A stretch of DNA of 30,348 nt from an uncultured Candidatus Saccharibacteria bacterium (GTDB lineage: Bacteria; Patescibacteriota; Minisyncoccia; 2-02-FULL-40-12; IGHO2-01-FULL-4-A), in NCBI GenBank assembly GCA_964446135.1, contig CAYUQA010000085.1, positions 1 through 30,348 on the forward strand, written 5' to 3'. Shown here piece after piece: positions 25 through 24,728 of this stretch (position 1 is the first letter of the stretch; each line of letters opens with the position of its first letter). The notes beneath the pieces are model-generated. The model saw only the letters and a program-made list of their open reading frames with translations. It did no database searches and had not been told where the DNA came from. The position numbers were made by a program, and so were the translations under genes.

Positions 25-97
25 GCGCCCGTAGCTCAATCGGAAGAGCGACTGCCTTCGAAGCAGTAGGTTGTAGGTTCGAGCCCTGCCGGGCGCG
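25..97 (+). tRNA. tRNA-Arg, anticodon TCG; CCA not encoded (followed by CA)
   Basis: Cloverleaf: acceptor GCGCCCG 25-31/CGGGCGC 90-96, D-stem GCTC/GAGC with A20 Arg identity base, anticodon stem ACTGC/GCAGT around CT-TCG-AA, T-loop TTCGAGC. Confidence 0.96.
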
Positions 98-99
98 CA
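83..99 (+). repeat. 17-bp direct repeat copy 1 (tRNA-Arg 3' end, GCCCTGCCGGGCGCGCA)
   Basis: Identical to 198-214; flanking bases differ on both sides. Confidence 0.95.
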
Positions 100-214
100 G
101 TTTGTAGAATATGTCACGAATGTGACATATGACAGGCGAGAACGGTTCGATGACTGAGCGCGAGCGAAGAAATACCAAAGGCCAGCAGGCCGTGGTGGCC
201 CTGCCGGGCGCGCA
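100..214. mobile_element. 115-bp tRNA-anchored mini-element or island scar ending in a duplicate of the tRNA 3' end
   Basis: Bounded by 17-bp direct repeats; contains 9-bp perfect hairpin ATATGTCAC-GAAT-GTGACATAT (109-130), GGTTCGA T-loop copy (144-150) and an AGCA-loop hairpin (174-196). Confidence 0.5.
198..214 (+). repeat. 17-bp direct repeat copy 2 of tRNA-Arg 3' end
   Basis: Exact match to 83-99. Confidence 0.95.
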
Positions 215-238
215 TAAGAGCACAAAAATACCACGGTA

Positions 239-267
239 TTGACTAAAATTCAATAAAATGGTATTAT
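239..267 (+). promoter_or_regulatory. sigma70-type promoter for the surface-protein/sortase pair
   Basis: TTGACT (239-244), 17-bp spacer, TATTAT (262-267) with extended TG at 259-260. Confidence 0.7.
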
Positions 268-319
268 AGTAGCATCTTACAAAGCGTCTCTCCGAGCCGC
301 TTTTCGATAAAAATATCAC

Positions 320-2923
320 ATGAATACATCAATTCGCACCAAGACAGTCGTTATAGCATCAGTACTCTTTGCAGTACTTTTTTCGGTAGTTAACTTTGCC
401 GGTGTCCGCGCTGATCTTATCGACTCCGATGGCAACGTTGCATTTAATACTAACGACACAATCGACTCCAATGGCAATGGCTACGTCTTCTTCGGTCCAA
501 ACGACTCTATTGATCCAACACCGACCGTAACATTTCGTCCAAACGACTCTATAGACCCACTTCCAACCAATCTTCCTGACGGTTGTGGTATTGTCTACGG
601 TCGCAAAATAGTTTGCGGCGCTCCATTTTCAACTCCAACTATCAGGCCGCCACATATTCCTTTTTATCCTACTGTCATTCCAACATATACACCTACCTAT
701 ACACTAGTTCCGCGTCCCACTCGCACCATCACTCCAATGCCTCCGATACAAGTCTACCCTTCAGTTGACTTAAAGGTTCGTGCCGGTAACACAAGTAATT
801 TTGTAGATGGCACTATCACGATTGATCAAAATGTGCCGTTCGAACTCTCTTGGAATTCAAACAATGTCTCAACCTGTAATGCCTCGGGTAACTGGAATGG
901 CGCCCGTGGTACTGTCGGCGCGCTAGTCATCGAAGCTGGTCTACCAGCCGGTCAATATCTATATACGCTAACCTGCACAGGTATATTTGGTAATGCAACT
1001 GATTTTGTCAGAGTAAACATCCGCGGCCCAACAATCACGCCAACACCGACACCAAATGCGCCAACCGTACAACTTCGCGCCAATGGTAGTGATCAAGATA
1101 TTACCATCAACTATAATCAAGCAGTTGCTCTATCTTGGACTTCAACCAATGCCAGCTACTGTGTCGCATCAGGCGATTGGAGCGGAACAAAATCAACACA
1201 AGGTTCACAAACAATTTCAAATAATATATTTCGAAAAGTCTTCTTATTGACCTGTTATGGTCAAGGCGGTAGTGCTTCGGATATCATTAACGTCCATGTT
1301 AATAATCAGGTAACTCCAACACCAACTCCGACGACTGCCCCCTATCTTACAGTCTCATTACAACCACAACCTCAAAGCGGCTATGTACCATTTGCTTCGA
1401 CTTTAACCGCCACGATCAACAGCAACACAAACGGCCCAATCACTTATAAATTTGATTGTACTAATGACGGTATCTACGAAGGTATCTGGACAAATATCTC
1501 AAACACGGTCTGGTCATTTACTTGTAATTACAATCAAGCCGGTACCTATACTGCCAGAGTTATCGCCGAACGCGATGGTTTAACTGCTACAGATACTCGC
1601 GGTATTACTGCATACAATCAAAATAATTATCAGAACACAATAGTCGATCTTACGACTAACCGCACTTCTGTAAATACTGGCGATAGCGCAATCCTTTCTT
1701 GGAATTCCCAAAACGCACAGTACTGCATAGCATCAAATGGCTGGTACGGTAGCAAGGCCACATCTGGTAATGAAATAGTATATAATATTTTCTCAACTAC
1801 GACATTTGTATTAACTTGCTACGGGAACAACTCTGCTTCTGATATAGTCACCATCTCTACAAACTCAAATACAAACAACGGCACAGTCACATTATCAAAA
1901 TCGGTTCGTAACGTATCGCGCTCAAGTGGTCTTGGTAGTTCAATAAACGCACAACCAAACGATACACTCGAGTTCGTAATTACGGCTACCAATAACAGCA
2001 ACTCAACGGCAAACAATGTCCGTGTCTATGATTCATTGCCATATGGCTTGAATTACGTCAATAACTCCGCGACGCAAAACGGATATTCTACAAACGGCGA
2101 GATCGTAAACAACGGTGCCTATATCAATCTGTCGCCAAACCAGACGATAACCTTCCGTTTTCAAGCAACGGTATCGGATAGTTTTATCTTAAATTACATT
2201 TCTTCAACGATCACAAATGTTGCCAATGCCTCTACAAACAATGGCTACGTTACCAGTAACACTGCGACCATCTATGTAAATAAAACCGCGGCTGTCATTG
2301 ATAATACACAAACTGGAACTTTGAGTATCCAAAAATTCGGCAAAGATATAAGTAAAGGCGACGCTACCGAACGCTCAAACTTAACCGCACAACCAAACGA
2401 TACTATTGAGTTTGTATTACGCGTTCGTACGCTGACATCAAGCACGATAGATAACGTCTACGTTCGCGATATTATGCCTGATGGTTTAATATATGTTCCG
2501 CGCTCAACCAGTATCAATGGCATCTCGGCTGCGGATGGCATTGTCGGCAGTTCTGGCCTGTTGATCGGCTCAATTGGAGCTGGCAACGAGATCATCATCC
2601 GCTTCAACGCAACAGTTAGCGCACAATCTTTCCAACGCGCCAACACATCTATCACAAATACCGCTATCGCTTTTGTTAATCAAACCAATACCAGCGTACA
2701 GTCCGGCCTTCCAATCACAATCAACAATCCACTCTACGGCGGTGTTATATCAAACCCGGGCAATATACAAACTGGTTCCGGCACTCTTTTGATAGCACTC
2801 TTGACCGGCCTTGTTATTACCACAGGTTATGTATTCTATAACCGCAGTGGTTACTCACAGAACCGCAGACTCAATAGAATTCTAAAAAATTCTAAAGCAA
2901 AGACTCAGTTCAATTTTGTCTAA
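320..2923 (+). CDS. Large secreted surface protein (867 aa): signal peptide, Pro/Thr linkers, three Cys-paired Ig-like repeats, PKD-like domain, two DUF11-like domains, C-terminal sortase-type sorting signal
   Basis: N-terminal hydrophobic leader; LSWxSxN..C.AS..W.G repeated three times; DUF11-like EFVITATN..VYDSLPYGLNYV and EFVLRVR..VRDIMPDGLIYV; C-terminal NIQTG + hydrophobic helix + basic tail; directly upstream of sortase. Confidence 0.85.
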   Translation: MNTSIRTKTVVIASVLFAVLFSVVNFAGVRADLIDSDGNVAFNTNDTIDSNGNGYVFFGPNDSIDPTPTVTFRPNDSIDPLPTNLPDGCGIVYGRKIVCGAPFSTPTIRPPHIPFYPTVIPTYTPTYTLVPRPTRTITPMPPIQVYPSVDLKVRAGNTSNFVDGTITIDQNVPFELSWNSNNVSTCNASGNWNGARGTVGALVIEAGLPAGQYLYTLTCTGIFGNATDFVRVNIRGPTITPTPTPNAPTVQLRANGSDQDITINYNQAVALSWTSTNASYCVASGDWSGTKSTQGSQTISNNIFRKVFLLTCYGQGGSASDIINVHVNNQVTPTPTPTTAPYLTVSLQPQPQSGYVPFASTLTATINSNTNGPITYKFDCTNDGIYEGIWTNISNTVWSFTCNYNQAGTYTARVIAERDGLTATDTRGITAYNQNNYQNTIVDLTTNRTSVNTGDSAILSWNSQNAQYCIASNGWYGSKATSGNEIVYNIFSTTTFVLTCYGNNSASDIVTISTNSNTNNGTVTLSKSVRNVSRSSGLGSSINAQPNDTLEFVITATNNSNSTANNVRVYDSLPYGLNYVNNSATQNGYSTNGEIVNNGAYINLSPNQTITFRFQATVSDSFILNYISSTITNVANASTNNGYVTSNTATIYVNKTAAVIDNTQTGTLSIQKFGKDISKGDATERSNLTAQPNDTIEFVLRVRTLTSSTIDNVYVRDIMPDGLIYVPRSTSINGISAADGIVGSSGLLIGSIGAGNEIIIRFNATVSAQSFQRANTSITNTAIAFVNQTNTSVQSGLPITINNPLYGGVISNPGNIQTGSGTLLIALLTGLVITTGYVFYNRSGYSQNRRLNRILKNSKAKTQFNFV

Positions 2924-2946
2924 AATATTTTAGGCAAATCAATATT

Positions 2947-3555
2947 ATGAAACTTCGAGCTACAATAATCTTCGTCGTTGCATTTGTGATTATATTTGCA
3001 ACATTGAATTTCTCTTCAATCATAAATGAGTTTAATTTCGCGACGCGCGATGTGCTCAATGCTCAAAGTATCAATGCATTTTATCTGCCGCTTTCAGCAG
3101 ATAAGAAACAGCAAGATCTTACAGAAGAAGCGACTCTAGTCATCGAAAAGCTCAACATATCGGCACCGATTATTTTCTCAAAAGCTCAAACAACAGATGC
3201 TATATATACTGATCTAAAAAAGGGTGTTGTTGTATATCCGGGCAGTGTCAAACCGGGCGAGCAAGGCTCTTCGCTGATTCTTGGACATAGTTCGAGCTAT
3301 CTGTGGGATAAAAATAAATATGGCAATATTTTTGCCCTAATAAATAAACTTCAGATCGGCGACACTTTTAGCATCCGCTATGCTGACGGTCAAACGTTCC
3401 GTTTTCAAGTTGATGAGTCTCTAATATTCAATCCATTTGATTCAGATAGTCTTGCCAAATTAAGTGCTACCGAAACCAGCAACGTCATTCTCATGAGTTG
3501 TTGGCCGACCGGTACTTCACTCAAACGCATCGGTATCAAAGGCGTACGCATATAA
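2947..3555 (+). CDS. Sortase family transpeptidase (202 aa)
   Basis: N-terminal membrane anchor, L.I.KLNI strand, catalytic His in ILGHSS, catalytic Cys in VILMSCWP (TLxTC variant), downstream Arg in KRI. Confidence 0.88.
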   Translation: MKLRATIIFVVAFVIIFATLNFSSIINEFNFATRDVLNAQSINAFYLPLSADKKQQDLTEEATLVIEKLNISAPIIFSKAQTTDAIYTDLKKGVVVYPGSVKPGEQGSSLILGHSSSYLWDKNKYGNIFALINKLQIGDTFSIRYADGQTFRFQVDESLIFNPFDSDSLAKLSATETSNVILMSCWPTGTSLKRIGIKGVRI

Positions 3556-3601
3556 CCAAAATAAAAACCCATCAGACATCTGATGGGTTTTTATTTTGGT
3601 T
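3554..3601. terminator. Bidirectional intrinsic terminator formed by a 23-bp perfect inverted repeat
   Basis: AACCAAAATAAAAACCCATCAGA-CA-TCTGATGGGTTTTTATTTTGGTT; GC core flanked by A and T tracts. Confidence 0.85.
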
Positions 3602-3628
3602 GCCGAAGACTCTTTTTTTTGTTATTAT
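3600..3628 (+). promoter_or_regulatory. Likely tRNA-Lys promoter
   Basis: TTGCCG (3600-3605), 17-bp spacer, TATTAT (3623-3628), 14 nt upstream of the tRNA. Confidence 0.55.
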
Positions 3629-3642
3629 TTTGCCATCAAATA

Positions 3643-3718
3643 CCGCCCTTAGCTCAGTTGGTAGAGCTGCTCCCTCTTAAGGAGAAGGTCGTTGGTTCGA
3701 ATCCAACAGGGCGGACCA
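3643..3718 (+). tRNA. tRNA-Lys, anticodon CTT, with encoded CCA
   Basis: Acceptor CCGCCCT/AGGGCGG, discriminator A, CCA 3716-3718; D-stem GCTC/GAGC; anticodon loop CT-CTT-AA; T-arm GTTGG-TTCGAAT-CCAAC. Confidence 0.96.
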
Positions 3719-5189
3719 TTTGAGATTTTTTACCACCAGATTCTTTATTGATGGCGTAGATATTAGATAATTTGGTGGTTCCAAATTTCTCACCGTCAAA
3801 GAACGGTTTTTCGTCAAAAATCATATTTTGGAAACGAACATTATTTGGGTGAGTCAATCTTAGCCATGTTTTAGCTGTCTCTCTTACAAAGTTAAAACAA
3901 TAATCCAGAGATTCTTCCATGTTAAACTCTTCAATATGGCTCTCCTGTAATAGTTGCCGCTTTTCGTATATTTTCTGATTAATCAAATCTTTCTGCTCAA
4001 CAAACTCCTCATCGTTATATCTGCCCGCTCTATGAAGATCAAAAATTTTTAATCTATCTTGCTCTAGATTCTCAACCTCTTTATTTATTTGAACATTCTC
4101 CTCATTAAATCTTTTGTAATTTGACTGCCAAATATCTATCATGATGGCCTTAAACATTTTCTCGTATTTTTTATTCGGAGTAATCTTGGTTAAATATTCA
4201 ACAAATAACTGTTCAAATGTTTCTTTGGGTATAAACTTTGCATTCTCGCAATTTTGACGATGGTGATGATAGTAAGGATATTTTACCCTCTTTCTTCCGG
4301 TAGAATAGCTACCGGTTATAGAGGTTCTGCAATTAGGACAGACAACTTTTCTTAAGGGGAAATTGGGATTAGCGCTTATTCTTTGTGTAGATTGAGATCT
4401 ATCTTTCTTTTTGCGCTGGCATTGATTAAATAACTCCTCACTAACTATTCCAAATGAACTTTTTATTCTCATTCCCCACACATCTATAATCCCACAATAT
4501 ATCGGATTCTTAATTATTCGCTCCATTAGTTGAGCAAAAGGTATTTTATTATTTCTAGTTCTAAATCCACGTTCACCTATGAATTTAGCCAATGCACGAT
4601 AACTATATTTGCCCTTAGCATATTCTTCGAATAAAAGTCTTATGTAAACAGAATCTTGAGGATGTGGTTCAATATTCGAACCAGAGTAAGATCTATAAAA
4701 ACCAATAGGAGCCGCCCATGTCCAAATTCCCTTCTTAAGCTGTTCCATCATGCCACTTATGCTCCTTTCTTTTCTGACGTTATTGTCTAATTCGGCAAAG
4801 ACAGAAAGCACACCCTCCATAGCCCTACCAAAAGGCGTTTCATTAATCGGCTCCGTAACTGATTTAAGCTCTGTTCCGAATTTTCTTAATATCGTCCTAA
4901 CGTTGACGTGATCATCTTGATTCCTTGCAAAACGATCTAACTTGTAAACAATAAAATAGTTAATGGGCTTTTTTTTGTTAGAACAAAGCGATATCGCTTT
5001 CATAAACTCTGGCCTGTCAGCAGTCTTAGCCGATTCTCCACGATCAACAAAAACTTTCGGATCCATAATTCCTAATTTCGTAGCATATTCACGGCATAGT
5101 CTTTCTTGCATATCTAAACTTGTTCCCTCAACCTGTTCCTTTGAAGAAACCCTACAATACAACACTCCCGTTTTTGCTGATTCGCTCAT
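3654..5189 (-). CDS. Large serine recombinase/integrase (511 aa): resolvase catalytic domain, recombinase domain, zinc ribbon, coiled coil
   Basis: LYCRVSSKEQ catalytic Ser motif, YKLDRFARN, WAAPIGFY, CPNC..YYHH..C ribbon; last 21 codons and TGA lie antisense within tRNA-Lys. Confidence 0.93.
   Translation of the reverse strand: MSESAKTGVLYCRVSSKEQVEGTSLDMQERLCREYATKLGIMDPKVFVDRGESAKTADRPEFMKAISLCSNKKKPINYFIVYKLDRFARNQDDHVNVRTILRKFGTELKSVTEPINETPFGRAMEGVLSVFAELDNNVRKERSISGMMEQLKKGIWTWAAPIGFYRSYSGSNIEPHPQDSVYIRLLFEEYAKGKYSYRALAKFIGERGFRTRNNKIPFAQLMERIIKNPIYCGIIDVWGMRIKSSFGIVSEELFNQCQRKKKDRSQSTQRISANPNFPLRKVVCPNCRTSITGSYSTGRKRVKYPYYHHHRQNCENAKFIPKETFEQLFVEYLTKITPNKKYEKMFKAIMIDIWQSNYKRFNEENVQINKEVENLEQDRLKIFDLHRAGRYNDEEFVEQKDLINQKIYEKRQLLQESHIEEFNMEESLDYCFNFVRETAKTWLRLTHPNNVRFQNMIFDEKPFFDGEKFGTTKLSNIYAINKESGGKKSQMVRPVGFEPTTFSLRGSSSTN
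3698..3716 (+). repeat. attL-like 19-bp direct repeat (CGAATCCAACAGGGCGGAC)
   Basis: Exact match to 7653-7671; runs from the T-loop to the first C of CCA. Confidence 0.93.
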
Positions 5190-5383
5190 GACTGTATTTT
5201 ATTGCTTTCCCCAAGTTTGTGCAGTATCCCAATAGGATACTTGGAACCACTTACACTATCTAGCCAATCATCAAAAATAAGCCGTCCTAACTCATAATAT
5301 TTATCGCGTATCTTAATAGCCTCATCATCAGAGATGCCATTTAATTCTGGGTCTATTTTTCTTAATTTCTCTATGTTGAGCAT
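5186..5383 (-). CDS. Small hypothetical protein (65 aa) translationally coupled to the recombinase
   Basis: Stop overlaps recombinase start (ATGA at 5186-5189); helical charged sequence. Confidence 0.7.
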   Translation of the reverse strand: MLNIEKLRKIDPELNGISDDEAIKIRDKYYELGRLIFDDWLDSVSGSKYPIGILHKLGESNKIQS

Positions 5384-5439
5384 AGGGTATCAGTCTGTAT
5401 TTATTATCTCAACCTGGGGCATTTAAAGCCCAAAGGTCC

Positions 5440-5625
5440 CTACTTTTTACTACCTTTTCTCTCTATGTCCTCTGATAGTTTTCGGTAGTAATTCTCATTC
5501 TCTAAAATTGATTTGATTGAATAAGTTTTTCCATTCGAGGGAACTATGCCGTAATAAGCTCTAACAAAAGCATCCCTTAACTCCTTATTTGGTATTTGTT
5601 CAACTAAATTTATTGTCTGGATCAT
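5440..5625 (-). CDS. Small hypothetical protein (61 aa)
   Basis: ATG start, co-oriented with island genes, AT-rich upstream spacer. Confidence 0.55.
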   Translation of the reverse strand: MIQTINLVEQIPNKELRDAFVRAYYGIVPSNGKTYSIKSILENENYYRKLSEDIERKGSKK

Positions 5626-5633
5626 ATAGTTAT

Positions 5634-5948
5634 AAATAAAAATCCGCTTAATTCGATGGGGGTACCACTTGGAATGACGACCCCCGCCGAATCAAACGGA
5701 CATTTCCCAAGTAGTTTACCGCCAAAACAGAAAAAGACCTCTCGCTAGAGGCCCTTTCTTTAAATAATCGAGAAAAAGCTCTACTAGCTCTTTCTCGCTC
5801 ACGAGGCGAAGGATTTAACCATGTTCTGTATAGGCTTAAAAATCTTCAAGCCATCAAGACGCAGTGAATTTACCGAATAACGAATCGGGGAGGATCTCAC
5901 CCCCTGATTCACCAAGCAGTTTTCTCTCTGCCTTTAGAATCTACAGTT
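5634..5948 (-). ncRNA. Candidate structured RNA or attenuator leader of the recombinase operon
   Basis: ORF-free; stem-loops at 5914-5933, 5882-5910, 5769-5797, 5736-5753 (+U-tract) and 5643-5700 (+U-tract); A-C mismatches on + become G-U pairs on -; TTGACA at 5982-5977 on - upstream. Confidence 0.4.
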
Positions 5949-5984
5949 GATTCCATTAAAGCAATTCGTGTATCTTTGTCAATC

Positions 5985-6236
5985 TTATTTGTCGATAAAT
6001 ATCATTTTTGGCACTTCGATTGTCGTCTCTATCGGCGTGACTGGTCTCCCGAACGCACGATCAAATAAAATCTGAGTTGCCTTTAAATCACCTTGCTTTG
6101 CGCGCTCTATAAGTCCAGTAACGATTAGTCCCAAAGAATTCCCAACTTGCTGAACTATATACTCTCGGAACTTCTCAGCCTGAACGCCACTAAATCCCTG
6201 TTTCCTGCCTGCATTTTCTCTATATCCACCTCTCAT
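5985..6236 (-). CDS. Hypothetical protein (83 aa) resembling phage terminase small-subunit-like/DUF5681-type proteins
   Basis: N-terminal GGYRENAGRKQG and C-terminal GDLKATQILFDRAFGRP resemble motifs remembered from such phage proteins; function not verified. Confidence 0.55.
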   Translation of the reverse strand: MRGGYRENAGRKQGFSGVQAEKFREYIVQQVGNSLGLIVTGLIERAKQGDLKATQILFDRAFGRPVTPIETTIEVPKMIFIDK

Positions 6237-6273
6237 AAAATTTGATAAGAATCAAAGATGATAATCGCAAAGA

Positions 6274-7290
6274 TTACCAAGAATTAATTTGGAAACTACC
6301 ATTGTTTATCTGCTGGGTTTGTATTCTGGTGCCACCAGGACCATAGCAGTCATAACCACCGTTAAGTGGGTGACAGATTGTTGAAGAATAGCTTCCGGAT
6401 TGATCAATATAGCCAGTATACGGTGATACGGGAAGCTTAACACCCATATCTTTGAGTTTTTGTATGGCATTGTATTCCAGCTGACTTGCCGTCCAATATC
6501 CTCCTGCTGCCTGGTATTCCTTAAGGAGTTGCTCCTTAACTTCGGCTAATTTATCGTTGTATTGTTTCCACTCGGTCTCAAATCGAGCTATTGCTGGATC
6601 TTTCTGATATTGAGCAGGTTTGTTTACGGCAGAGTTGGCAGATTGCATCTGCAACATCATTTCCCGCAAAAATTGATTAGCTTGATCCATTTGCTGACCA
6701 TAATTTTTAATCTGTTTTAATGATTGCTGTGTAGAAGCTTCAAAAGCATCTACTTGTTGGTTATATAATCCGATTGTTCTTATCTCTAGATTCTCATATT
6801 CTGCTATAACATCAGTTCTAGGATTTTCACCCTTTTTCAATCTATCAATTTCCTTATCTACCAAATCTAAAAGAGTATATTGATATCCAAGCGCAGTGGT
6901 GTTTGCATCTCTTAAGCCAGGAGCAGTGTTATTGGTTATTATTAAATTATTTTTGGTGATTTGATTTCTTAAAGCCTCAAGTCGTTGGATAACTGTTTTA
7001 TCCATTATTGGAATTGTTGTCTTTACGGTTCTCTGAACTTTTTTGACAGCAGCTCCTTTGTTCGTGTTTTTTACTTCCGAGGGTTTCGTAACATATTTTT
7101 TCTCAGATTCCTCTTTCATCATTCGTTGAAGTCCACTGGACTTATCAATTAAAGAGTCTTGTTGGACAGCTTCTTGCTTAAAAAGTTGCCAATTATCGAA
7201 CCAAGTAAAAGGATTCCACCAAGCTGCAAAAGTAACTTGCGGATAGAGTATAATTCCCAAAATCAAGCTAAATAGTATACCTTTCTTCAT
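6274..7290 (-). CDS. Secreted coiled-coil hypothetical protein (338 aa from MKKGILF) with AAWWNPFTW motif
   Basis: Signal peptide MKKGILFSLILGIILYPQVTFA; C-terminal Cys pair; start chosen at 7290 because the promoter lies at 7298-7326. Confidence 0.8.
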   Translation of the reverse strand: MKKGILFSLILGIILYPQVTFAAWWNPFTWFDNWQLFKQEAVQQDSLIDKSSGLQRMMKEESEKKYVTKPSEVKNTNKGAAVKKVQRTVKTTIPIMDKTVIQRLEALRNQITKNNLIITNNTAPGLRDANTTALGYQYTLLDLVDKEIDRLKKGENPRTDVIAEYENLEIRTIGLYNQQVDAFEASTQQSLKQIKNYGQQMDQANQFLREMMLQMQSANSAVNKPAQYQKDPAIARFETEWKQYNDKLAEVKEQLLKEYQAAGGYWTASQLEYNAIQKLKDMGVKLPVSPYTGYIDQSGSYSSTICHPLNGGYDCYGPGGTRIQTQQINNGSFQINSW

Positions 7291-7297
7291 AAAATAT

Positions 7298-7326
7298 ATT
7301 ATAACATAAAATTCTTTAGATTGCAA
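7298..7326 (-). promoter_or_regulatory. sigma70 promoter giving a leaderless mRNA for 6274-7290
   Basis: TTGCAA (7326-7321), 17 bp, TG-n-TATAAT (7303-7298); ATG lies 7 nt after the -10 box. Confidence 0.7.
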
Positions 7327-7547
7327 TTAGGGTACTTGAATCCGCTCTTCTGCGACTTTATCTCGGATTCTAATATCAGAGGGTATTATATCGCCAAGAA
7401 TAATCGCTATTTTCAAGCACTTTTCCAAAATCTCTCCATTTGTTAAGCTCTAATAATAGGTGATTCCAATTCTGTCCTATTAGGCGGACATTCTAAACAA
7501 TAAAGTCGAATTTATTTGGCTTTATTGTTTAGATATATTTTGTATCT

Positions 7548-7652
7548 TGTTGGATTCGAACGCCGGAGCGACTGTTTCGTCAGCAGACGAAACCGCGAGG
7601 CGCGGCCTGGAGACCTAGTTCCGACGGCTGGTCGGGACTAGAGTCGAAATGG
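7548..7652. repeat. tRNA T-arm mirror plus GC-rich hairpin cassette at the island right end
   Basis: 7548-7561 (TGTTGGATTCGAAC) is the exact reverse complement of tRNA-Lys 3695-3708; hairpins GTTTCGTC-AGCA-GACGAAAC (7574-7593), CCGCG-AGG-CGCGG (7593-7605), CTAGTTCCGAC-GGCTG-GTCGGGACTAG (7615-7641). Confidence 0.8.
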
Positions 7653-7671
7653 CGAATCCAACAGGGCGGAC
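7653..7671 (+). repeat. attR-like 19-bp direct repeat of tRNA-Lys 3' end
   Basis: Exact match to 3698-3716; followed by AAAC rather than CA. Confidence 0.93.
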
Positions 7672-7696
7672 AAACTATCTTTCACAAGGAGACGGT

Positions 7697-8242
7697 ATGG
7701 ACTGGACAAAATTAGAATATGAGTCACGAGATATTTTAGAAGAAACAGTAATCAGAATACAAGAGGCGATTCTTGAGGTATTTAACATGAAGGGCGACAA
7801 CCGTTGCTGGCTGGCATACTTTATTATCTACGAAGCCGCTGATATCGCTACGTTGTCATCCTCGGCCAGATTTCCAAAAGAAGATTTTGGTGATCGCTGT
7901 GATCATTTTATTGAGCACAGTCCTAACCCAGATCAAATGGTCTTATGGGAAAATGCCGAGCCATATCACACATACGATGTTTCAAAAATGAATGATGCAA
8001 AACTTCGTGCATACATCAGAAGATGCCGCAAAGTAATCGGCGTCCATTACCGTAAATTCTTAACTGGTAAATACGATTACAAAGATGACCAAAAAATTAT
8101 CGCACTTCTGCCCCAAAAAATTATCTTCGACACTAGACTACCTGATAGAGAAAAAATGAGACCAAACTGTGATCGATTTTACGAGTGCAAAGAAGCACAA
8201 CTCGATAAAAACGGCTTCACCGACTGGCACCGTTGGGAATAG
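7697..8242 (+). CDS. Hypothetical protein (181 aa from MDWTKL)
   Basis: AAGGAG Shine-Dalgarno at 7686-7691 before ATG 7697; terminator follows; no recognisable family. Confidence 0.7.
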   Translation: MDWTKLEYESRDILEETVIRIQEAILEVFNMKGDNRCWLAYFIIYEAADIATLSSSARFPKEDFGDRCDHFIEHSPNPDQMVLWENAEPYHTYDVSKMNDAKLRAYIRRCRKVIGVHYRKFLTGKYDYKDDQKIIALLPQKIIFDTRLPDREKMRPNCDRFYECKEAQLDKNGFTDWHRWE

Positions 8243-9086: not shown

Positions 9087-10244
9087 CTACTTTAATATTT
9101 TTACGAGCGCCGAGACAAGAGTATCAATCTCTTTTTTTGTCGTTGGACGGCCAAGACTAATGCGAACAACGCCGTCTTGATAATGTCTAGATAGATTCAG
9201 CGCTTTGACGACATGAGATGGACCGGTTTCGTGCGATGAACAAGCGGCGCCACTGGCGACAAAAATATTTTTAGCGCTCAATGCTTGCACGATCATCTCA
9301 CCCGAAATATTCGAAAATGCCACGCTGATAATATGAGGCACCGTTTGAACTTTTTCAGCGATCACTAACGCATCGGGGGCGACTTTTTTAATTTTTTGGA
9401 TACAATATTTTTTTAGTTCAGCCAAACGCTCCGATTCTCGGATCCGCTTTTTTTCACTAATCTCGAGTGCCTTTGCAAAACCGGCAATTGCCGAAATATT
9501 TTCGGTTCCAGATCGTAATCCGCGCTCCTGTCCGCCGCCAACAATCAAGGGCGAAAGATACTGTGGAAAATGCGACCAAAGCAAAGCAATCCCTTTAGGC
9601 CCATAGCATTTGGCCGCATTGAGTGTCATCGCATCCAAACCATACTCATGTGGCATAATCGACAGGAAGCCGGTAGCCTGACATGCGTCGCTATGCAAAA
9701 GAGGGAATAGCGCCTTGTTTTTTTTACGAAAATCCAAAATTATTTTGCTGATCTCTTTAAGTGGTTGGATGGTGCCGATTTCATTTTGAACCAACATACA
9801 AGAAACGAACACCGTCTTGCGCGTTAGTAATTTTTTGAGTGCCGTCGGGTTAACAGAACCGTCTCTATTGATGGGTGCATAGAGGACCTTAAATCCTTCT
9901 TTTTTTAAAATATCACAAGCACGATGTATAGAGGCATGCTCGACGGCACTCACTATAATATGGTTACCCTGTTTTTTAAGCGATCGGGCGATGCCAAGAA
10001 GCGCGAGATTGTTTGACTCGGTACCCGAAGCTGTAAAGATGATTTCGGGGGATTTTACGTTTAGAATCTTAGCGATACGAGATCGCGCATCCTGAACAGC
10101 GCAAGCTGAATCCGAACCAGCGCGATGTACTGATGAGGGGTTGGCATAGAAATCTTTACTGGCTTTTTCTGTAGCACGCGAAACAACCGGATCAACTGGC
10201 GTAGCAGCAGCGTAGTCGAGATAGATAGATTTTTTCTTTGGCAT
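9087..10244 (-). CDS. iscS: Cysteine desulfurase, IscS/NifS family (385 aa)
   Basis: YLDYAAATP, NPSSVH, FTASGTESNN, HSDACQA, PLP lysine in AAKCYGPKG, RSGTEN, catalytic Cys in SGAACSS. Confidence 0.9.
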   Translation of the reverse strand: MPKKKSIYLDYAAATPVDPVVSRATEKASKDFYANPSSVHRAGSDSACAVQDARSRIAKILNVKSPEIIFTASGTESNNLALLGIARSLKKQGNHIIVSAVEHASIHRACDILKKEGFKVLYAPINRDGSVNPTALKKLLTRKTVFVSCMLVQNEIGTIQPLKEISKIILDFRKKNKALFPLLHSDACQATGFLSIMPHEYGLDAMTLNAAKCYGPKGIALLWSHFPQYLSPLIVGGGQERGLRSGTENISAIAGFAKALEISEKKRIRESERLAELKKYCIQKIKKVAPDALVIAEKVQTVPHIISVAFSNISGEMIVQALSAKNIFVASGAACSSHETGPSHVVKALNLSRHYQDGVVRISLGRPTTKKEIDTLVSALVKILK

Positions 10245-10278
10245 AATAAAAAGTCCGACGATTATCGGACTTTTTATT
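10245..10278. terminator. Intrinsic terminator after dsbA-like gene, abutting the iscS start codon
   Basis: AATAAAAAGTCCGA-CGATTA-TCGGACTTTTTATT, 14-bp perfect stem. Confidence 0.75.
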
Positions 10279-10304
10279 CTACAATCAGTTCAAAATATAG
10301 TCAA
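10276..10304 (-). promoter_or_regulatory. iscS promoter overlapping the terminator
   Basis: TTGACT (10304-10299), 17 bp, TAGAAT (10281-10276). Confidence 0.6.
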
Positions 10305-10305
10305 T

Positions 10306-11025
10306 CTATTTTAGGGCGGCGTCTATGGTAGCTTTAAAACTAGCAAATGGCTGAGCACCTACCAGTTGAGTCCCATTGATAAAGAATGAAGGTGTACCAC
10401 TGACGTTTATAGAGCTGGCATAAGCTAAATCATTATCAATATGGCTAGTATATTTACCGGATTCAAAACATTGGTTGAATTGCGAGGCATTGAGCTTGAT
10501 ATTCGCCGCCCATCGTTTTAAGTCACTGGTCGTATATTGAACGGTCCCAGTTCCTTTTTTAGCCTGTTCTTGAAATATTTTATCGTGCATCTCCCAGAAC
10601 TTACCCTGTTCAGCGGCACATTCTACAGCTATCGCCGATGGTTTAGCTAGCGGGTGAAAATCTAAAGGAAAGTGTCTAAATACAAGTCGTGCTTTGCCGG
10701 TATCAATATATTCGGTTTTGACCTGGGCAAAAGCGCCTTCAAAGAAACTTCGGCAAAATGGACACTGAAAATCACTAAACTCAACAATCGTAACTTTGGC
10801 ATCTTTATTGCCAAGAATATGATCCTGATCTGTGATCTCAATCTTCACTGGTTTGGGTGGTGTATTATCTGCAATTTTAGCTAAACCACCAGCCCCGCCA
10901 CGTGTCATGAGTAGAGTTCCTGCAATAATAACCGCGGCGATCAAGATAGCGCCAGGTAGAATAAAAGGCTGAAAACCACGGGGGCTTGCGCTAGATGCTG
11001 GAGAAGTTTGTTGTATATCTTCCAT
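10306..11025 (-). CDS. Membrane-anchored DsbA-family thiol:disulfide oxidoreductase
   Basis: FSDFQCPFC active site, RHFPL, GTP cis-Pro loop, N-terminal TM helix; start MEDIQ (11025) preferred over 11094. Confidence 0.9.
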   Translation of the reverse strand: MEDIQQTSPASSASPRGFQPFILPGAILIAAVIIAGTLLMTRGGAGGLAKIADNTPPKPVKIEITDQDHILGNKDAKVTIVEFSDFQCPFCRSFFEGAFAQVKTEYIDTGKARLVFRHFPLDFHPLAKPSAIAVECAAEQGKFWEMHDKIFQEQAKKGTGTVQYTTSDLKRWAANIKLNASQFNQCFESGKYTSHIDNDLAYASSINVSGTPSFFINGTQLVGAQPFASFKATIDAALK

Positions 11026-11115
11026 AAAAATTACGATGTTGCTGATAGTTAAAAAAATATCAGAAGCATACGGATTACGTTTGGATACTAGCATATATCG
11101 ACAAGAATATACCTA

Positions 11116-11144
11116 TTGACAAGTAGTTAAATATATATTATAAT
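11116..11144 (+). promoter_or_regulatory. Perfect consensus sigma70 promoter with no downstream + strand gene
   Basis: TTGACA (11116-11121), 17 bp, TATAAT (11139-11144). Confidence 0.75.
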
Positions 11145-11150
11145 TATATA

Positions 11151-11351
11151 CATCGTGGTACTGCAACTTTCGTGACTCTCTGATGCACAATGCTCCACCT
11201 CTTTTAAGAAGTGGAGCGGTTTGATAGGCATACTATACAGCTTTTATGCTGTATAGTCTATCATTTATCAAAGGGGAAAATATCCGGTTTCCGGATATAA
11301 CCGAAGATGTGGTCCTCATAAAAAAGCCGAGCGTAAATGCCCGGCTTTTTT
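11151..11351 (+). ncRNA. Candidate ~200-nt structured small RNA
   Basis: Lies between the perfect promoter and the terminator at 11315-11356; hairpins 11192-11217, 11222-11263, 11280-11298; possible closing ACATC/GATGT. Confidence 0.5.
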
Positions 11352-11356
11352 ATGAG
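11315..11356. terminator. Bidirectional terminator at the tig stop
   Basis: CTCATAAAAAAGCCG ... CGGCTTTTTTATGAG, 15-bp perfect stem. Confidence 0.85.
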
Positions 11357-12657
11357 ACAATCTCCTCGACCGCTCTTGCGCCCTGTTCTAGAAGTGAGAA
11401 CACCTTGTCTGTGGTTAGTGTCTCTCTTATCTGACTTTTCATTCTCTCTATGGTCTCCGGTTTTAACTGCTCGGGATTCTGGCCAAGGCGGACCATTGAA
11501 TACTGCAACAGAGCCTGAAGCTCTACGTCGACCTCATCTTCAGAGACCGAGATATTCTCCGCGCGAGCAATCGCTCGCAACACTAGATTTGCTTTTACTT
11601 GTGATTCGGCCTGCTTGCACCATTCTTTTCTAAGCTCCTCTTCTGTTTTTTTAATATGCACCAGATATAAAGCCAGTTCGAGACCATTTCGATGAAGCTC
11701 TTCATCGAAAGAGGCGATCATTGAATCCAGTCGCTCGTTGATAAGCGTCTCCGGGATATCGGCTTCACTTTTTTGGGCGACTTGCTCCATTAGGTTTAGT
11801 CTTATTTTTTCTTTTGCCTTATCATTTTTTTCTTTAAATAAACCGTCACGAATACTTGCCCTTAAATCATCGGCTGTCTGAAAAGAGCCAAGAGAAGCGA
11901 CAAAAGAATCGTTGAGTTCGGGAGTCTCACGATCCTCTATTTTTTTTACTGTAACTTCGGCATGTAGCGTCTTGCCAGCGATAGTTTGTTGGTAATAATC
12001 AGCTGGTATTTCAAGATTGAATTCTTTAAACTCGCTCTTCTTCATGCCGACAATATGATCCTCAAAGCCAACAACAAATTTGTTGTCACCTATAGTTATG
12101 GGGTGATTTTCACTTTTGCCGCCGTCAATAACGGCATCGCCTTCTTTAATAATAAAATCGACTTCAACACGATCACCATTCTGGGCTGGGCGGTCAACTT
12201 CATTAAAAACTGTGCGTGATTTTGTAATATCTTGGACCACCTTATCTACCTCTTCGTCGCTGACAGATATAGTCTCTGGTTTAAATTTAAGATCAACATA
12301 ACTTCCGAGTTTTATATTAGGGAACAGAGATAGTAAGACTTCGAATTTTAAAAGGTCTTTGGAATTTTCAAGAACCTTTAGATCACTATAGGAGATAAAA
12401 TCCAACTTTTCTTTTTTGACTACGTTCGAAAGACTATTCTCAATTGCCATATTGAGGGCCTCTTGTCTGATATGGTCTTCGCCAACTTTTTTACGAAATA
12501 TATCCGGCGGCGTTTTGCCGGGACGAAATCCCTCTAGTGTGCTTTGCTTTATCATCGCCTGCTCGGTAGCCTCTATAAATCCGGCCAAATCGGAACTATC
12601 TAAATCAATAGTTAGTTTAACTCGACTGTCCTTTAGCTCTGTAACCTTATGTTCCAT
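11350..12657 (-). CDS. tig: Trigger factor (435 aa)
   Basis: Ribosome-binding GFRPGKTP signature, FKBP domain (GDRVEVDF, GFEDHIVGMK), C-terminal chaperone domain. Confidence 0.95.
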   Translation of the reverse strand: MEHKVTELKDSRVKLTIDLDSSDLAGFIEATEQAMIKQSTLEGFRPGKTPPDIFRKKVGEDHIRQEALNMAIENSLSNVVKKEKLDFISYSDLKVLENSKDLLKFEVLLSLFPNIKLGSYVDLKFKPETISVSDEEVDKVVQDITKSRTVFNEVDRPAQNGDRVEVDFIIKEGDAVIDGGKSENHPITIGDNKFVVGFEDHIVGMKKSEFKEFNLEIPADYYQQTIAGKTLHAEVTVKKIEDRETPELNDSFVASLGSFQTADDLRASIRDGLFKEKNDKAKEKIRLNLMEQVAQKSEADIPETLINERLDSMIASFDEELHRNGLELALYLVHIKKTEEELRKEWCKQAESQVKANLVLRAIARAENISVSEDEVDVELQALLQYSMVRLGQNPEQLKPETIERMKSQIRETLTTDKVFSLLEQGARAVEEIVS

Positions 12658-16226: not shown

Positions 16227-17261
16227 ATGTCAAGGCCAGTCGGTACAGAAAATATCATCGCAAGCCCATCGCAGAATAATGACGAAGTCACCTTTGACTT
16301 AGCTCTTCGGCCACAGGCATTTGATGAGTACATCGGCCAAGAACAGGTTAAGCGCAATTTAAAAATATTAATTGGTGCCGCAAGCAAACGAGGCGAGGCT
16401 CTGGAGCACATCCTAATACATGGCCCATCGGGTCTAGGTAAGACGACACTATCCTATCTTATAGCAAAAGAATTTGGCGCAGCCATAAAAATCACATCTG
16501 GCACTGCGCTTGAAAAGGCTGGTGATATTGGATCCATTCTTACTGGCCTTAGCGATGGTGATTTTTTGTTTATTGATGAAGTGCATAGGCTCAACAAGGC
16601 AGTCGAGGAGACGCTATACCCGGCAATGGAGAACTACAATCTAGATATTATTATCGGCAAAGGTGTCTCGGCAAAAACACTACAAGTGAAGCTCCCGCGC
16701 TTCACTCTGATCGCCGCCACCACAAGAATATCGCTTTTATCCAACCCGTTTCGCTCTCGTTTTGGCGCACATTATAAGTTAGATTTTTATACAACCGAGG
16801 AAATCAGTCGAATATTAGGTCGCTCTGCGAGACTGCTGAATATAGAGATAGACAGCGATGCACTTACAATCATCGCGCAAGCATCTCGCCTGACACCACG
16901 TATCGCGAATAGACTACTAAAGCGCGTCCGAGATTATACACAAGTCCAAAATGCCGAACGCATCACAAAGTCATTAGCTCTTCTGGCGCTGGAGCTCATT
17001 GGCATTGATAATATTGGTCTTGATGATACTGATCGAAAAATATTGCGGATAATAGGTCAAAACTTCCAAGGTGGTCCGGTTGGACTTAAATCAATAGCCG
17101 CCGCCATAGCAGAAGAAGAAGAAACCGTTGAAGATGTTTATGAACCCTACTTACTACAACTCGGCTTGATTGCTCGCACAAGTCGAGGTAGAGTAATAAC
17201 CGATATCGGTAGGGTTCACATAGGCTTAGCTGTCGAACAAAGAGAACAATCTTTTCTATGA
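16227..17261 (+). CDS. ruvB: Holliday junction branch-migration ATPase RuvB (344 aa)
   Basis: LRPQAFDEYIGQ, GPSGLGKTT, FIDEVHRL, YPAMENY, TPRIANRLLKRVRD, EPYLLQLG..RGR. Confidence 0.97.
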   Translation: MSRPVGTENIIASPSQNNDEVTFDLALRPQAFDEYIGQEQVKRNLKILIGAASKRGEALEHILIHGPSGLGKTTLSYLIAKEFGAAIKITSGTALEKAGDIGSILTGLSDGDFLFIDEVHRLNKAVEETLYPAMENYNLDIIIGKGVSAKTLQVKLPRFTLIAATTRISLLSNPFRSRFGAHYKLDFYTTEEISRILGRSARLLNIEIDSDALTIIAQASRLTPRIANRLLKRVRDYTQVQNAERITKSLALLALELIGIDNIGLDDTDRKILRIIGQNFQGGPVGLKSIAAAIAEEEETVEDVYEPYLLQLGLIARTSRGRVITDIGRVHIGLAVEQREQSFL

Positions 17262-17518
17262 TTATTAATTCTATAACATCTTTCCTGAGCACCAACCTAC
17301 CTTCGTTATTACTATTTATTATTCTTGCCGTTTTTATTGTCGGTATATTGTCTATACTCTATCACCTCATTCGATTTGGAATCGGAGCAATTACTAAAAT
17401 AGTAGCTGTGCTTTTATTAATAGCCGCCTTTATTGGCGTTAGTGCAGTACTATATTTTTATAGTCGCGTTGATTTCGCTGATATTATTTCGTTGATTACT
17501 GGCAATTTTAATTTTTAA
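17258..17518 (+). CDS. Small two-TM membrane protein (86 aa)
   Basis: Two hydrophobic segments; ATGA overlap with ruvB stop. Confidence 0.75.
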   Translation: MIINSITSFLSTNLPSLLLFIILAVFIVGILSILYHLIRFGIGAITKIVAVLLLIAAFIGVSAVLYFYSRVDFADIISLITGNFNF

Positions 17519-17520
17519 AT

Positions 17521-18078
17521 ATGCATAAAGTATTTATAAACCAGAAAGAGTACGAGACTGTACGAATCCTATTGCGCAGACATTATCTTTTTCTATTGGC
17601 TATATTTTTAATGTTTGGCATTCTGGCGCTTATCCCTATATTTGGCTACGCTCTTTTAACTAGATTTATCACAATACAGCCTGCTGTACAAAATCTCATA
17701 TTCTTCTTCATTAGTGTCTACTATCTTTTTTGGATTTATGGTTTTTTCTATTCCTTAGCTGATTATCTATTAGATGTTTGGCTTGTCACCGATCATCGTA
17801 TAGTCGACATGAAACAAAATGGCCTTTTTAACCAAGATATCGCCGAAACCAGACTTAGTAACGTCCAAGATGTATCGGTAAGTATCAAGGGAGTTTTAGC
17901 GACATTATTTAGTTTTGGAAATGTCGTCATTCAAACCGCCGGCGCAAAACAAGTCTTCGAATTTCAACAGATACCAAATCCGGTTCGCGTCAAAGATACC
18001 ATACTGAGACTCTTCGATGAATTCACTCGCACCCATGTCGGTGGCACCGAGATACACGAAGAATCAACTCCCACATAA
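17521..18078 (+). CDS. Membrane protein with bacterial PH-like domain (185 aa)
   Basis: Two TM helices followed by WLVTDHRIV..GLF..L.NVQDV.V...G..ATLFSFGNV.IQTAG pattern. Confidence 0.8.
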   Translation: MHKVFINQKEYETVRILLRRHYLFLLAIFLMFGILALIPIFGYALLTRFITIQPAVQNLIFFFISVYYLFWIYGFFYSLADYLLDVWLVTDHRIVDMKQNGLFNQDIAETRLSNVQDVSVSIKGVLATLFSFGNVVIQTAGAKQVFEFQQIPNPVRVKDTILRLFDEFTRTHVGGTEIHEESTPT

Positions 18079-18080
18079 TT

Positions 18081-18689
18081 ATGAAAGTTATCGTTGCCGC
18101 TATCGTCTTTTTTATTACCGCCACAGGGCTCATCCTCTCCACACGTACAGATACAGCTGGCAATGCCGTCATCTCCAATTCGCTGACGCCATCAATATCA
18201 ATAACTAAAAACAGCTCCAGGACTGCGACTATTAATCAAGCTATTACGACAGCTAGTACTAAGGCACTTCGAACTACAGAGGCCACGCTCATACCAGTAC
18301 AGACTCCGGCGCCTTCGCAAACGTATACAGAGACAATAACACCAACAAAAACACCGACACCGACAGTATTAATACCGACAGCTACAACGCCGCCTAAAAC
18401 CCTCACTCCAATACCGACAATACTTACACCAAGTCCCGTCACGATAACTTCTACGCCAACACCCACAACAACACCACAAACGCCGGTTCCAACTCCAGAG
18501 CCAACAACCAGCACGACTACAAGTAACCATATCTATTACACCAGTTCTTATAAGACATCTAAATACTACTACTGCGATACCGATAATGCCTGGAAGGGGC
18601 TTTCACCAAACAACCTAAAATCATTTTCATCGCCCGAAGCATTACTTGCAGAATTCTCAAATCGCAGTCTACATGAACCGTGTAAATAA
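18081..18689 (+). CDS. Membrane-anchored/secreted Thr/Pro-rich protein with small aromatic C-terminal domain (202 aa)
   Basis: N-terminal hydrophobic helix, long TP-rich linker, C-terminal YYTSSY..YYYCDTD.AWKGL domain with two Cys. Confidence 0.75.
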   Translation: MKVIVAAIVFFITATGLILSTRTDTAGNAVISNSLTPSISITKNSSRTATINQAITTASTKALRTTEATLIPVQTPAPSQTYTETITPTKTPTPTVLIPTATTPPKTLTPIPTILTPSPVTITSTPTPTTTPQTPVPTPEPTTSTTTSNHIYYTSSYKTSKYYYCDTDNAWKGLSPNNLKSFSSPEALLAEFSNRSLHEPCK

Positions 18690-23430: not shown

Positions 23431-24519
23431 TTATGAACGTAATGGCATTATGATGTAGATAAAATTCTTATCTGAGTCATTTTTAAGTACTAGTGGATTA
23501 CCCTCTCCTGTATATTCTAATATAACATTATCACTACGTATCGATTTAAGTCCATCCAATAGATATCTGTAATTCATAGAGACTGCAAATGGTTCATAAG
23601 AATCTTGTGTTAATATTGCCGCATTTAATTCTCCGCGATCAGTATTTTGTGAAAATATCTCAAGACGATCTTCTATTAAACGTAAAGTTATATCGGATAT
23701 TGTTGAAGAAAAAATACTCGCCAACCGTACTGTTTTTTCAAATTCTTGCCGTGGAATTTTTAATGTAGCTATAGAGTTGTTAGGAATAATCCTTTTATAA
23801 TCAGGATAACGTCCGTCAATAAGACGAGAGACAAATTGAAAATTCTGATTTGATAAAAAGAATTGATTTTCAGATAATTCAAATTCAATATCTTCATCAA
23901 GACTATCAATAATACGAATAATCTCGATCGCTGTTGTCCGAGGAATAATAAATTGCTTTGTTATCCCTAAATCACAAGCAAGCTCTTGTTCAGCAAGACG
24001 AAAACTATCAGTGGCGGCAAAAATAATTTTATTTTCATGTAATTGTAAAAAAATTCCGCTTAATTCAGGACGTAATTCAGATAGTGATGCCGAATCCAGA
24101 ACTGATGATAGACCCTGTTTTAATACTCCGCGATTTATGGATATCGGTTCAACTGTTTTATTTGAAGGGATAATCGGGAATTCATGACTATCCATTCCTA
24201 ATAATTTCGTAGCTATTTTTTCTGTTTGTATCTGAAGTGTATTTTTTACGGCAGTTAGTGTGATTTTTTCGTCATGGATATTTTGAATAAATTCAGAAAA
24301 TAGTCTTGCCGGCACAACAAGTTCCCCTTCGGCTTCAATCTTTGCACCAATCCAATAATGCATTCCTATCTCCAGATTTGTGGCAGAGAGTCTAAGACGT
24401 CCTTGATCTGTCTTTAAAAGAATCCCATTTAAAATTGGTAGACTGTTATTCTTTGCGGCAACATGCTCCACGACCCGAACTGCATTTAGGAGCCTCTGAT
24501 GATTAATAATTATATTCAT
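23431..24519 (-). CDS. dnaN: DNA polymerase III beta sliding clamp (362 aa)
   Basis: LPILNGIL, SATNLEIG, ATDSFRLA, SRLIDGRYPDY, MNYRYLLD, IMPLR. Confidence 0.97.
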   Translation of the reverse strand: MNIIINHQRLLNAVRVVEHVAAKNNSLPILNGILLKTDQGRLRLSATNLEIGMHYWIGAKIEAEGELVVPARLFSEFIQNIHDEKITLTAVKNTLQIQTEKIATKLLGMDSHEFPIIPSNKTVEPISINRGVLKQGLSSVLDSASLSELRPELSGIFLQLHENKIIFAATDSFRLAEQELACDLGITKQFIIPRTTAIEIIRIIDSLDEDIEFELSENQFFLSNQNFQFVSRLIDGRYPDYKRIIPNNSIATLKIPRQEFEKTVRLASIFSSTISDITLRLIEDRLEIFSQNTDRGELNAAILTQDSYEPFAVSMNYRYLLDGLKSIRSDNVILEYTGEGNPLVLKNDSDKNFIYIIMPLRS

Positions 24520-24728
24520 ATGTTATTACTACTATTATAGGTGTGATTATGGGGATAAGTTATTATTTGTCTATATGTATCAACCGATTATGTTAGATTT
24601 TACGTGTGTGTAACTCGGGGATAATTTTGGATAACTATGTGTATAATTTGGAGTGTTTATAAATCGATTACTTATACTCAAGTTTATGCAAAAGTTTTGG
24701 CCATACTATCGACATAGTTATAAACAGG
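24520..24728. other. Replication origin oriC (dnaA-dnaN intergenic)
   Basis: About ten DnaA-box-like 9-mers (24550, 24605, 24616, 24626, 24638, 24654 on -; 24672, 24684, 24706, 24718 on +) and an AT-rich trinucleotide run at 24522-24540. Confidence 0.85.

Follow-up and report, generated by a model that had tools for sequence, protein, structure and literature searches.

The 30,348-nt contig from an uncultured Candidatus Saccharibacteria bacterium analysed here (the window) carries a 3,773-bp element inserted at the 3' end of a tRNA-Lys gene. The element appears to represent a family found in Patescibacteria (the candidate phyla radiation, CPR) whose large serine recombinase has its phage-side attachment site, attP, inside the 3' end of its own gene, int. 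Insertion into the tRNA would swap the C-terminal tail of the enzyme, and the two isoforms produced in this way would differ in their properties. The probability of this reading as a whole is put at roughly 0.85. The int gene of the window is split, with its last codons at the far end of the element; this split anatomy is conserved in related loci, and a contiguous form of the gene lies on a circular contig. The family is apparently both large and undescribed.

Integrase genes and their host tRNAs

The tRNA-Lys(CTT) gene occupies positions 3643–3718 of the plus strand (ARAGORN; Rfam RF00005, 67.6 bits). It is intact and its CCA is encoded; an Rfam scan of 3400–8000 (E<=1) returns nothing besides this tRNA. 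On the opposite strand, int (5189–3654) encodes a large serine recombinase of 511 amino acids (aa), here called the integrated isoform, which is identified by its open reading frame (ORF) and translation, by Pfam and PHROG matches, and by a Foldseek search with the model of a relative. The PHROG match is to an integrase (E=1.7e-74). The Pfam domains are all of the serine recombinase type, and no tyrosine recombinase domain is among them. They consist of Resolvase (PF00239, E=7.5e-30, residues 9–155), Recombinase (PF07508, E=3.5e-10, residues 179–264), which forms the first DNA-binding domain (DBD1), and Zn_ribbon_recom (PF13408), which belongs to the second (DBD2) and scores 23.9 bits, slightly below the cut-off of 25.3. 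In family alignments R13, V14 and S15 of the resolvase-type catalytic domain are invariant or nearly so, and the zinc-ribbon residues C284, C287 and C314 are invariant.

As a preliminary description of this DNA had stated, int contains no stop codon before the tRNA: the ORF, ARAGORN and Rfam agree that the antisense strand of the host gene supplies its C-terminus and stop. The reading frame enters tRNA-Lys antisense and ends at a TGA (3656–3654) inside the D-arm, so that the protein terminates in KKSQMVRPVGFEPTTFSLRGSSSTN. The final 21 codons and the stop (3654–3719, minus strand) are the antisense of the tRNA and translate as MVRPVGFEPTTFSLRGSSSTN.

This arrangement recurs throughout the relatives of the integrase. 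A search of 5.8 billion proteins, in which 8,000 candidates were scored, yielded at least 2,631 relatives at E<=1e-10. The best 120 of these are 53–82% identical and ~505 aa long, and most of them end in KKSxLVxPxG(I/F/V)EPxxxx. The G(I/F/V)EP motif is the translation of the antisense tRNA T-loop (GGNTTCGAACC or GGNATCGAACC), its G-I/F-E-P codons being GGN ATC/TTC GAA CCN, and the nearly invariant L/M-V ahead of it corresponds to xTG GTN, the antisense of the discriminator and CCA. Tails of this kind are present in 115 of 145 family proteins, while approximately 16 carry a different, longer tail. A scan of loci using one genome per species gave 80 examples, nearly all from metagenome-assembled genomes (MAGs) of Patescibacteria, and in ~60 of them the reading frame of int continues into a tRNA gene in antisense and terminates there. 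The overlapped genes are mostly tRNA-Glu (TTC/CTC), with Lys(CTT), Ala(TGC) and Arg(TCT, CCT, TCG) also represented, and the tails of the integrated state are arbitrary in length and sequence, being set by the tRNA targeted. The preliminary description had proposed a comparison of homologues for antisense-tRNA C-termini on different tRNAs, and the counts above come out consistently in its favour. Because homologues regularly read into different tRNAs, a stop codon lost by accident in one locus is ruled out. On these sequence comparisons the read-through of int is far beyond chance, and the phenomenon is much larger than one locus. It also explains the hundreds of recombinases with G(I/F)EP-type terminal peptides reported by gene callers.

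The detached tail exon and the crossover core

The other portion of the gene is a detached tail exon of 37 codons at 7489–7376 on the minus strand, found by frame translation, which encodes VRLIGQNWNHLLLELNKWRDFGKVLENSDYSWRYNTL followed by a stop. It is matched by a hidden Markov model (HMM) of the tail (E=2.8e-9), is conserved in a related locus (L001), and is homologous to the C-termini of contiguous, free-form integrases. The exon opens with GTCCGCC, a heptamer also read by the int body at 3716–3710. The minority tail carries a conserved motif, LV(A/T)(L/Q)VG(K/A/Q)(S/N)WN(R/Q)(I/L)(V/I)xxLxxWxxFG, and is referred to here as the WN tail. When the tail HMM was searched against six-frame fragments of all loci, a detached copy was found upstream of int in ~45, and in 39 integrated loci with a tRNA overlap, including the window. 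All matches with E<0.01 in oriented loci lie on the int strand.

The int body and the tail exon have a short core in common, and in all 39 testable loci joining them there keeps the frame and restores the stop and the conserved tail; the core is at least 6 nt long in 38 of these loci and 4 nt in one. The joined ORFs end in LV..(V/I)G.NWN.L..EL..W..FG and a stop. When the junction of int and tRNA is compared with the beginning of the tail exon, shared cores of 7–13 bp emerge (GTGACCC, GTAGCCC, GTCCGCC, GTGCGCC and TGGTGGCC, among others). These are located at the extreme 3' end of the tRNA, in the discriminator and the acceptor 3' strand, and their lengths are compatible with the short att sites of serine integrases, which have a small common core and a 2-bp crossover. 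In the window, the longest block common to the attL and attR junctions, which also gives the in-frame join, is GGCGGAC, at 3710–3716 (attL) and 7483–7489 (attR). The attL copy takes in the 3' strand of the acceptor stem, except for the first base of that strand, and continues through the discriminator to the initial C of CCA. The element between the two cores measures 3,773 bp; sizes in the 39 loci are 3,496–10,989 bp, with a median of ~5.5 kb. Joining at the core (7482 to 3717) gives a predicted circle junction that reads CAAATGGTCCGCCTAATAGGACAG on the int strand. As judged from the sequence, the real crossover core of the window element is this 7-bp block and not the longer, 19-bp repeat that is considered below.

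Directly after the attR core is a terminator-like hairpin with a 19-pair stem and a T-rich tail (7492–7533, plus strand), identified by a terminator scan. This hairpin is read as the native terminator of tRNA-Lys, which the insertion would have displaced by 3.8 kb. Since a promoter-like site directed towards int precedes the tRNA (3600–3628, plus strand) and the hairpin follows attR, the native order would have been promoter, tRNA and terminator, with the element inserted between the end of the tRNA and its terminator.

Contiguous forms of the gene are also represented. The gene for one long-tailed integrase (P0022) lies on a contig of 4,154 bp whose ends overlap by 141 bp, which implies a circle of ~4,013 bp. 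A circular permutation of this contig occurs in a second assembly, and neither contig contains a tRNA. A second contiguous gene (L069) aligns with five integrated relatives in two blocks, which share 9 nt where they meet. The body block is 84–87% identical to these relatives, and the tail block, 91–94.5% identical, is located 4.5–6.3 kb upstream in them. Two further contiguous forms (L087 and L092) are found in metagenomes of the Joint Genome Institute (JGI), and relatives whose contigs were binned to MAGs of Acidobacteriota and Longimicrobium also have the WN tail in contiguous form. The tail motif is kept across phyla, and across integrases that are only ~45–60% identical.

Some loci show less regular arrangements of the tail. 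In one (L062, 7993–18382) two different family members stand in tandem at a single tRNA-Glu. The frame of integrase B (16777–18348), which has 31% identity to the query, enters the tRNA. Integrase A (9989–11653) has a contiguous long tail, and its own tail exon lies at 7993–8064. The long tail of A is probably the tail exon of the inner element B, and tail exons are apparently exchangeable between elements. Three other loci (L089, L090 and L094) contain truncated tail exons (VTQVGQNWN, then a stop) with no in-frame integrase upstream, possibly the scars of lost elements.

Consequences of the tail swap and alternative readings

The proposed mechanism begins with recombination at GGCGGAC in the 3' acceptor strand of tRNA-Lys, which would insert the element between the tRNA body and the terminator. 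The element would supply CCA and everything 3' of the core, and the tRNA would stay whole because its CCA end is donated in this way. The int body would be left at attL, reading on antisense through the tRNA to a fortuitous stop, and the integrated isoform would gain a 19-residue disordered tail after Met-Val. The last 37 codons, which encode the conserved helical WN tail, would be moved to attR, 3.8 kb away, until excision rejoined them with the int body. Because the WN tail is conserved family-wide, we infer that it matters to the free-form enzyme and that the isoforms are not equivalent, whether in activity, in directionality, in dependence on a partner or in stability. Integration is most likely the task of the full-length free form. 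The activity or directionality of the truncated form made in the integrated state would be changed, perhaps in concert with a 65-aa partner, and the product of recombination would itself set the state of the enzyme.

The candidate partner is encoded by a conserved ORF of 65 aa (5186–5383, minus strand) that overlaps the int start (ATGA) and is found upstream of int in nearly all family members. Across the family, as seen in loci L001 to L086 and including relatives on contigs not binned to CPR, this ORF encodes 60–65 aa and abuts or overlaps the start of int. Its consensus is MLSxExLRKIDPxLxxLSDEELxxIRxxLYxLxQLAFExW..GSKNPVG. The product is a candidate accessory factor or subunit, or a candidate recombination directionality factor (RDF).

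Predicted structures place the exchanged segment at the very end of the protein. The AlphaFold2 model of P0022 (93-sequence alignment, mean predicted local distance difference test score, pLDDT, 88) consists of the catalytic domain, the long helix E, DBD1, the zinc ribbon, a two-helix coiled-coil (~342–436) and the remainder of DBD2 to ~496. The WN tail follows as a low-confidence linker (497–503) and a 20-residue helix (504–523), with a pLDDT of 67–82 over the block. The integrated isoform of the window is modelled with the same layout up to ~490, where its DBD2 ends, and two long antiparallel helices (~340–435) are present in both isoform models. Its tRNA-derived residues 493–511 have a pLDDT below 50 and no secondary structure, and are predicted to be disordered. 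Foldseek matches of the P0022 model are to full-length serine integrase–att complexes (E 5e-20 to 3e-13), including those of Bxb1 and phiC31 and an entry titled 'autoinhibited phiC31 integrase-attL complex'. In canonical serine integrases direction is set by a separate RDF that binds near the junction of DBD2 and the coiled-coil, and published work locates its action in the part of the coiled-coil closest to DBD2 (PMC11795197). An additional helix immediately behind DBD2 could be well placed to interfere with this region, although this is speculation. In a more specific version the reaction itself would set the direction of the enzyme: the C-terminal helix, next to the DBD2/coiled-coil region, would favour attP x attB, and its replacement by the disordered tRNA-derived peptide would give an isoform able to carry out attL x attR, or one that newly needs the 65-aa partner. 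This version seems unlikely in that exact form. If true, it would amount to a self-contained directionality switch for a serine integrase in less than 4 kb.

Several observations weigh against a functional difference between the isoforms, or against the proposed cycle. The swap exchanges only residues after ~492, and all Pfam domains lie before residue 333; since the tail is thus beyond all recognised catalytic and DNA-binding domains, it is possibly dispensable. The expression and activity of both isoforms are predictions from sequence. Of the 37 codons of the tail exon, 13 differ non-synonymously and 7 synonymously between the window and L001, and constraint is clear only over the first ~23. 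The predicted excised junction of the tRNA-Lys lineage (TGGTCCGCCTNATAGGACAGAATTGGAA) has no match in the metagenome and viral contigs searched. No pair of free and integrated copies of one element turned up at >90% identity, and a protein search for an integrated counterpart of the circular-form P0022 gave a nearest relative that is only 72% identical. Finally, the conserved small ORF could encode a conventional RDF, which would make a tail-based switch unnecessary and keeps alive the view that the swap is a neutral by-product.

According to this neutral view, a compact element must supply CCA, attP consequently overlaps the 3' end of int, and the isoforms are equivalent. The position of the tail after all known domains of such recombinases, on a low-confidence linker, is consistent with it, as is the arbitrary nature of the integrated tails, which depend only on the tRNA targeted; ordinary RDF control by the small ORF would fit equally well. 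However, a motif retained over integrases of ~45–60% identity and across phyla is hard to explain if it is dispensable, and in each of the 39 loci the detached exon is intact and keeps its frame. Equivalence of the isoforms therefore seems doubtful, though it deserves serious consideration.

Alternatively, loss of the tail might disable the integrase and lock the element in the chromosome, a 'suicidal' outcome of the SSV type. Integrated copies outnumber free forms by ~7:1 among database proteins, which would agree with such an end state, and att sites within int genes have a precedent: the account of SSV-type integrases of archaeal viruses and plasmids in PMC7253208 places the recombination site within the ORF, so that integration partitions the gene. 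Those tyrosine recombinases are described there as being cut into two large inactive pieces, whereas here the loss is confined to 37 residues past the last DNA-binding domain, and the recognised catalytic and DNA-binding domains are all retained. The tail exons show no decay, free circular forms exist, and the spread of the family has taken it to many hosts and to four types of tRNA, all of which makes self-inactivation improbable compared with the tail swap proposed above.

Antisense control is a third alternative. Here int would be silenced in the integrated state, either through pairing of its mRNA 3' end with the tRNA or through collision with transcription of the tRNA gene. The two genes do overlap and converge throughout the family, and the promoter-like site would drive the tRNA towards int. 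The int mRNA is antisense to the tRNA over 65 nt in the window and over ~35–40 nt in tRNA-Glu lineages. For the free form a complementarity of 19 nt had been claimed; because the crossover core is GGCGGAC, this shrinks to ~10 nt, made up of TGG and the 7-bp core. Tight folding and modification, however, make mature tRNAs poor antisense partners, and the overlap is an unavoidable outcome of the split-gene geometry. Silencing of this kind, a suggestion drawn from the gene layout, is rated as decidedly improbable for an explanation of the arrangement, but it is compatible with a tail swap and the two are not mutually exclusive.

The preliminary description had bounded the element differently, by an exact 19-bp direct repeat, CGAATCCAACAGGGCGGAC, at 3698–3716 and 7653–7671. 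The repeat is present and is a genuine copy of the 3' part of the tRNA. The ORF joined by hand across it also reads as had been written, MVRPVGFAISTLVPTSRRN with a TAG stop at 7617–7615, and the corresponding circle junction (7652 to 3717) would be GAAATGGCGAATCCAACAGGGCGGACCATTTGAG. The idea that excision swaps the C-terminus holds in principle, as the 39 joins indicate, but neither exchange at the 19-bp repeat nor the alternative tail AISTLVPTSRRN is supported. An excision with these boundaries and this tail is extremely improbable: the tail is without counterpart in any homologue, the conserved tail exon, 163 nt inside the boundary, would fall out of frame, the join is at the short acceptor-end core in 39 of 39 loci, and the outer copy (7653–7671, located by a repeat search) is 163 nt outside attR, with the tRNA terminator in between. 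Fragments of tRNA of at least 11 nt occur beyond attR in only five distinct loci of ~60 (the window, L001, L033, L057 and L078). Serine integrases are not known to need or use long blocks of identity. From its sequence, the outer repeat is probably a displaced tRNA 3' end from an older event, and not a site of this integrase. The case illustrates that island boundaries are mis-set if the longest tRNA-derived direct repeat is relied upon.

The closest precedent for the tail swap is the IntP/IntX pair of Mx8, a 49-kb myxophage with a tyrosine recombinase that also targets tRNA genes (tRNA-Asp). In PMC6070905, citing Tojo 1996 and Magrini 1999, attP is placed in int, and integration is stated to give a new 3' end (intP to intX) that modifies but does not abolish activity. 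On that account the two systems share an attP inside the int coding sequence and a new 3' end and C-terminus upon integration. The elements described here differ from Mx8 in that the enzyme is a large serine recombinase on elements of 3.5–11 kb, in that the window-family tail is an antisense tRNA translation, and in that the arrangement is conserved over a very large family and four tRNA types. Mycobacteriophages BPs, Brujita and Charlie, with their integration-dependent immunity, have their att site in the repressor gene, whose product has a C-terminus that depends on the integration state; the preliminary description had drawn the comparison with such phage repressors. In those phages a repressor is remodelled by a tyrosine integrase, whereas here the integrase itself is remodelled and no repressor is involved; repressor-like families are absent from the Pfam and PHROG matches of the island ORFs.

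The domain architecture and fold are the same as those of phiC31, Bxb1, A118/LI and TP901-1, and the shared cores of 7–13 bp would fit the short att sites with a small common core of those systems. In canonical large serine integrases attP lies outside int and the targets are mostly protein-coding genes. The present family departs from them in carrying attP inside int, in targeting tRNA 3' ends and in a C-terminus that changes with the state of the element. No serine integrase with attP in its own gene was found in a full-text literature search that covers subscription journals thinly, so an earlier description is possible; the same search, with the same thin coverage, gave no account of this Patescibacteria element family. 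Serine integrases are valued for genome engineering as simple and one-directional enzymes, and how their direction is set is an active question. A natural family that rewrites the integrase C-terminus on integration offers a ready test of C-terminal gating of directionality or activity. The family also adds tRNA 3' ends to the targets of serine integrases, and a very common, very small class of mobile element (3.5–11 kb) to the Patescibacteria, whose mobile DNA is poorly known.

Other genes and surroundings of the element

The remaining ORFs of the element are cargo genes taken from the ORF listing, which encode 61 aa (5440–5625), 83 aa (5985–6236) and 350 aa (6274–7326) on the minus strand. 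Neither Pfam nor PHROGs gave anything usable for these three or for the 65-aa ORF. The non-coding region 5626–5985 contains three terminator-like hairpins on the minus strand (5797–5769, 5758–5731 and 5904–5887). They separate a unit of orf350 and orf83 from a unit of orf61, orf65 and int, and all genes of the element are on one strand. An inovirus identity, prompted by a literature match, was dropped: neither a morphogenesis ATPase nor any phage family was found, and 3.8 kb is too small.

The L001 locus is syntenic with the window, with NusA, trigger factor and an aminotransferase on one side and tRNA-Arg on the other. Among the matches listed in a DNA alignment of the two, the int body and the 65-aa ORF are 78% identical over 1,669 nt. 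The L001 gene list is unlike that of the window, and beyond attR it has an unrelated spacer of 90 nt and a tRNA fragment of 11–13 nt. In L001 (9472–9646) the tRNA-Arg(TCG) and tRNA-Lys(CTT) genes are 26 nt apart, whereas in the window (25–3643) they are separated by 3.5 kb that encode an 867-aa surface-type protein with DUF11 and a sortase. This difference in spacing suggests another insertion, or a deletion in L001.

Outside the element, the region 7534–7671 includes a GC-rich segment of ~120 nt (7546–7665) that is predicted to fold on the plus strand into a three-way junction with a 12-bp closing stem. The predicted fold has a dG of -66.5 kcal/mol (z = -6.6), and none of 200 shuffles was as good. 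The outer 19-bp tRNA fragment contributes its T-arm part as the 3' strand of this stem. The segment has no Rfam match, and no BLAST homologue was found among 97 loci.

Further away, dnaN and dnaA are located at 23431–26099, ~16–19 kb from the element, which places the window near the chromosomal replication origin region. The window also carries genes for NusA, trigger factor, RuvB, tyrosyl-tRNA synthetase (TyrRS), a T2SSE ATPase and a class A penicillin-binding protein (PBP).

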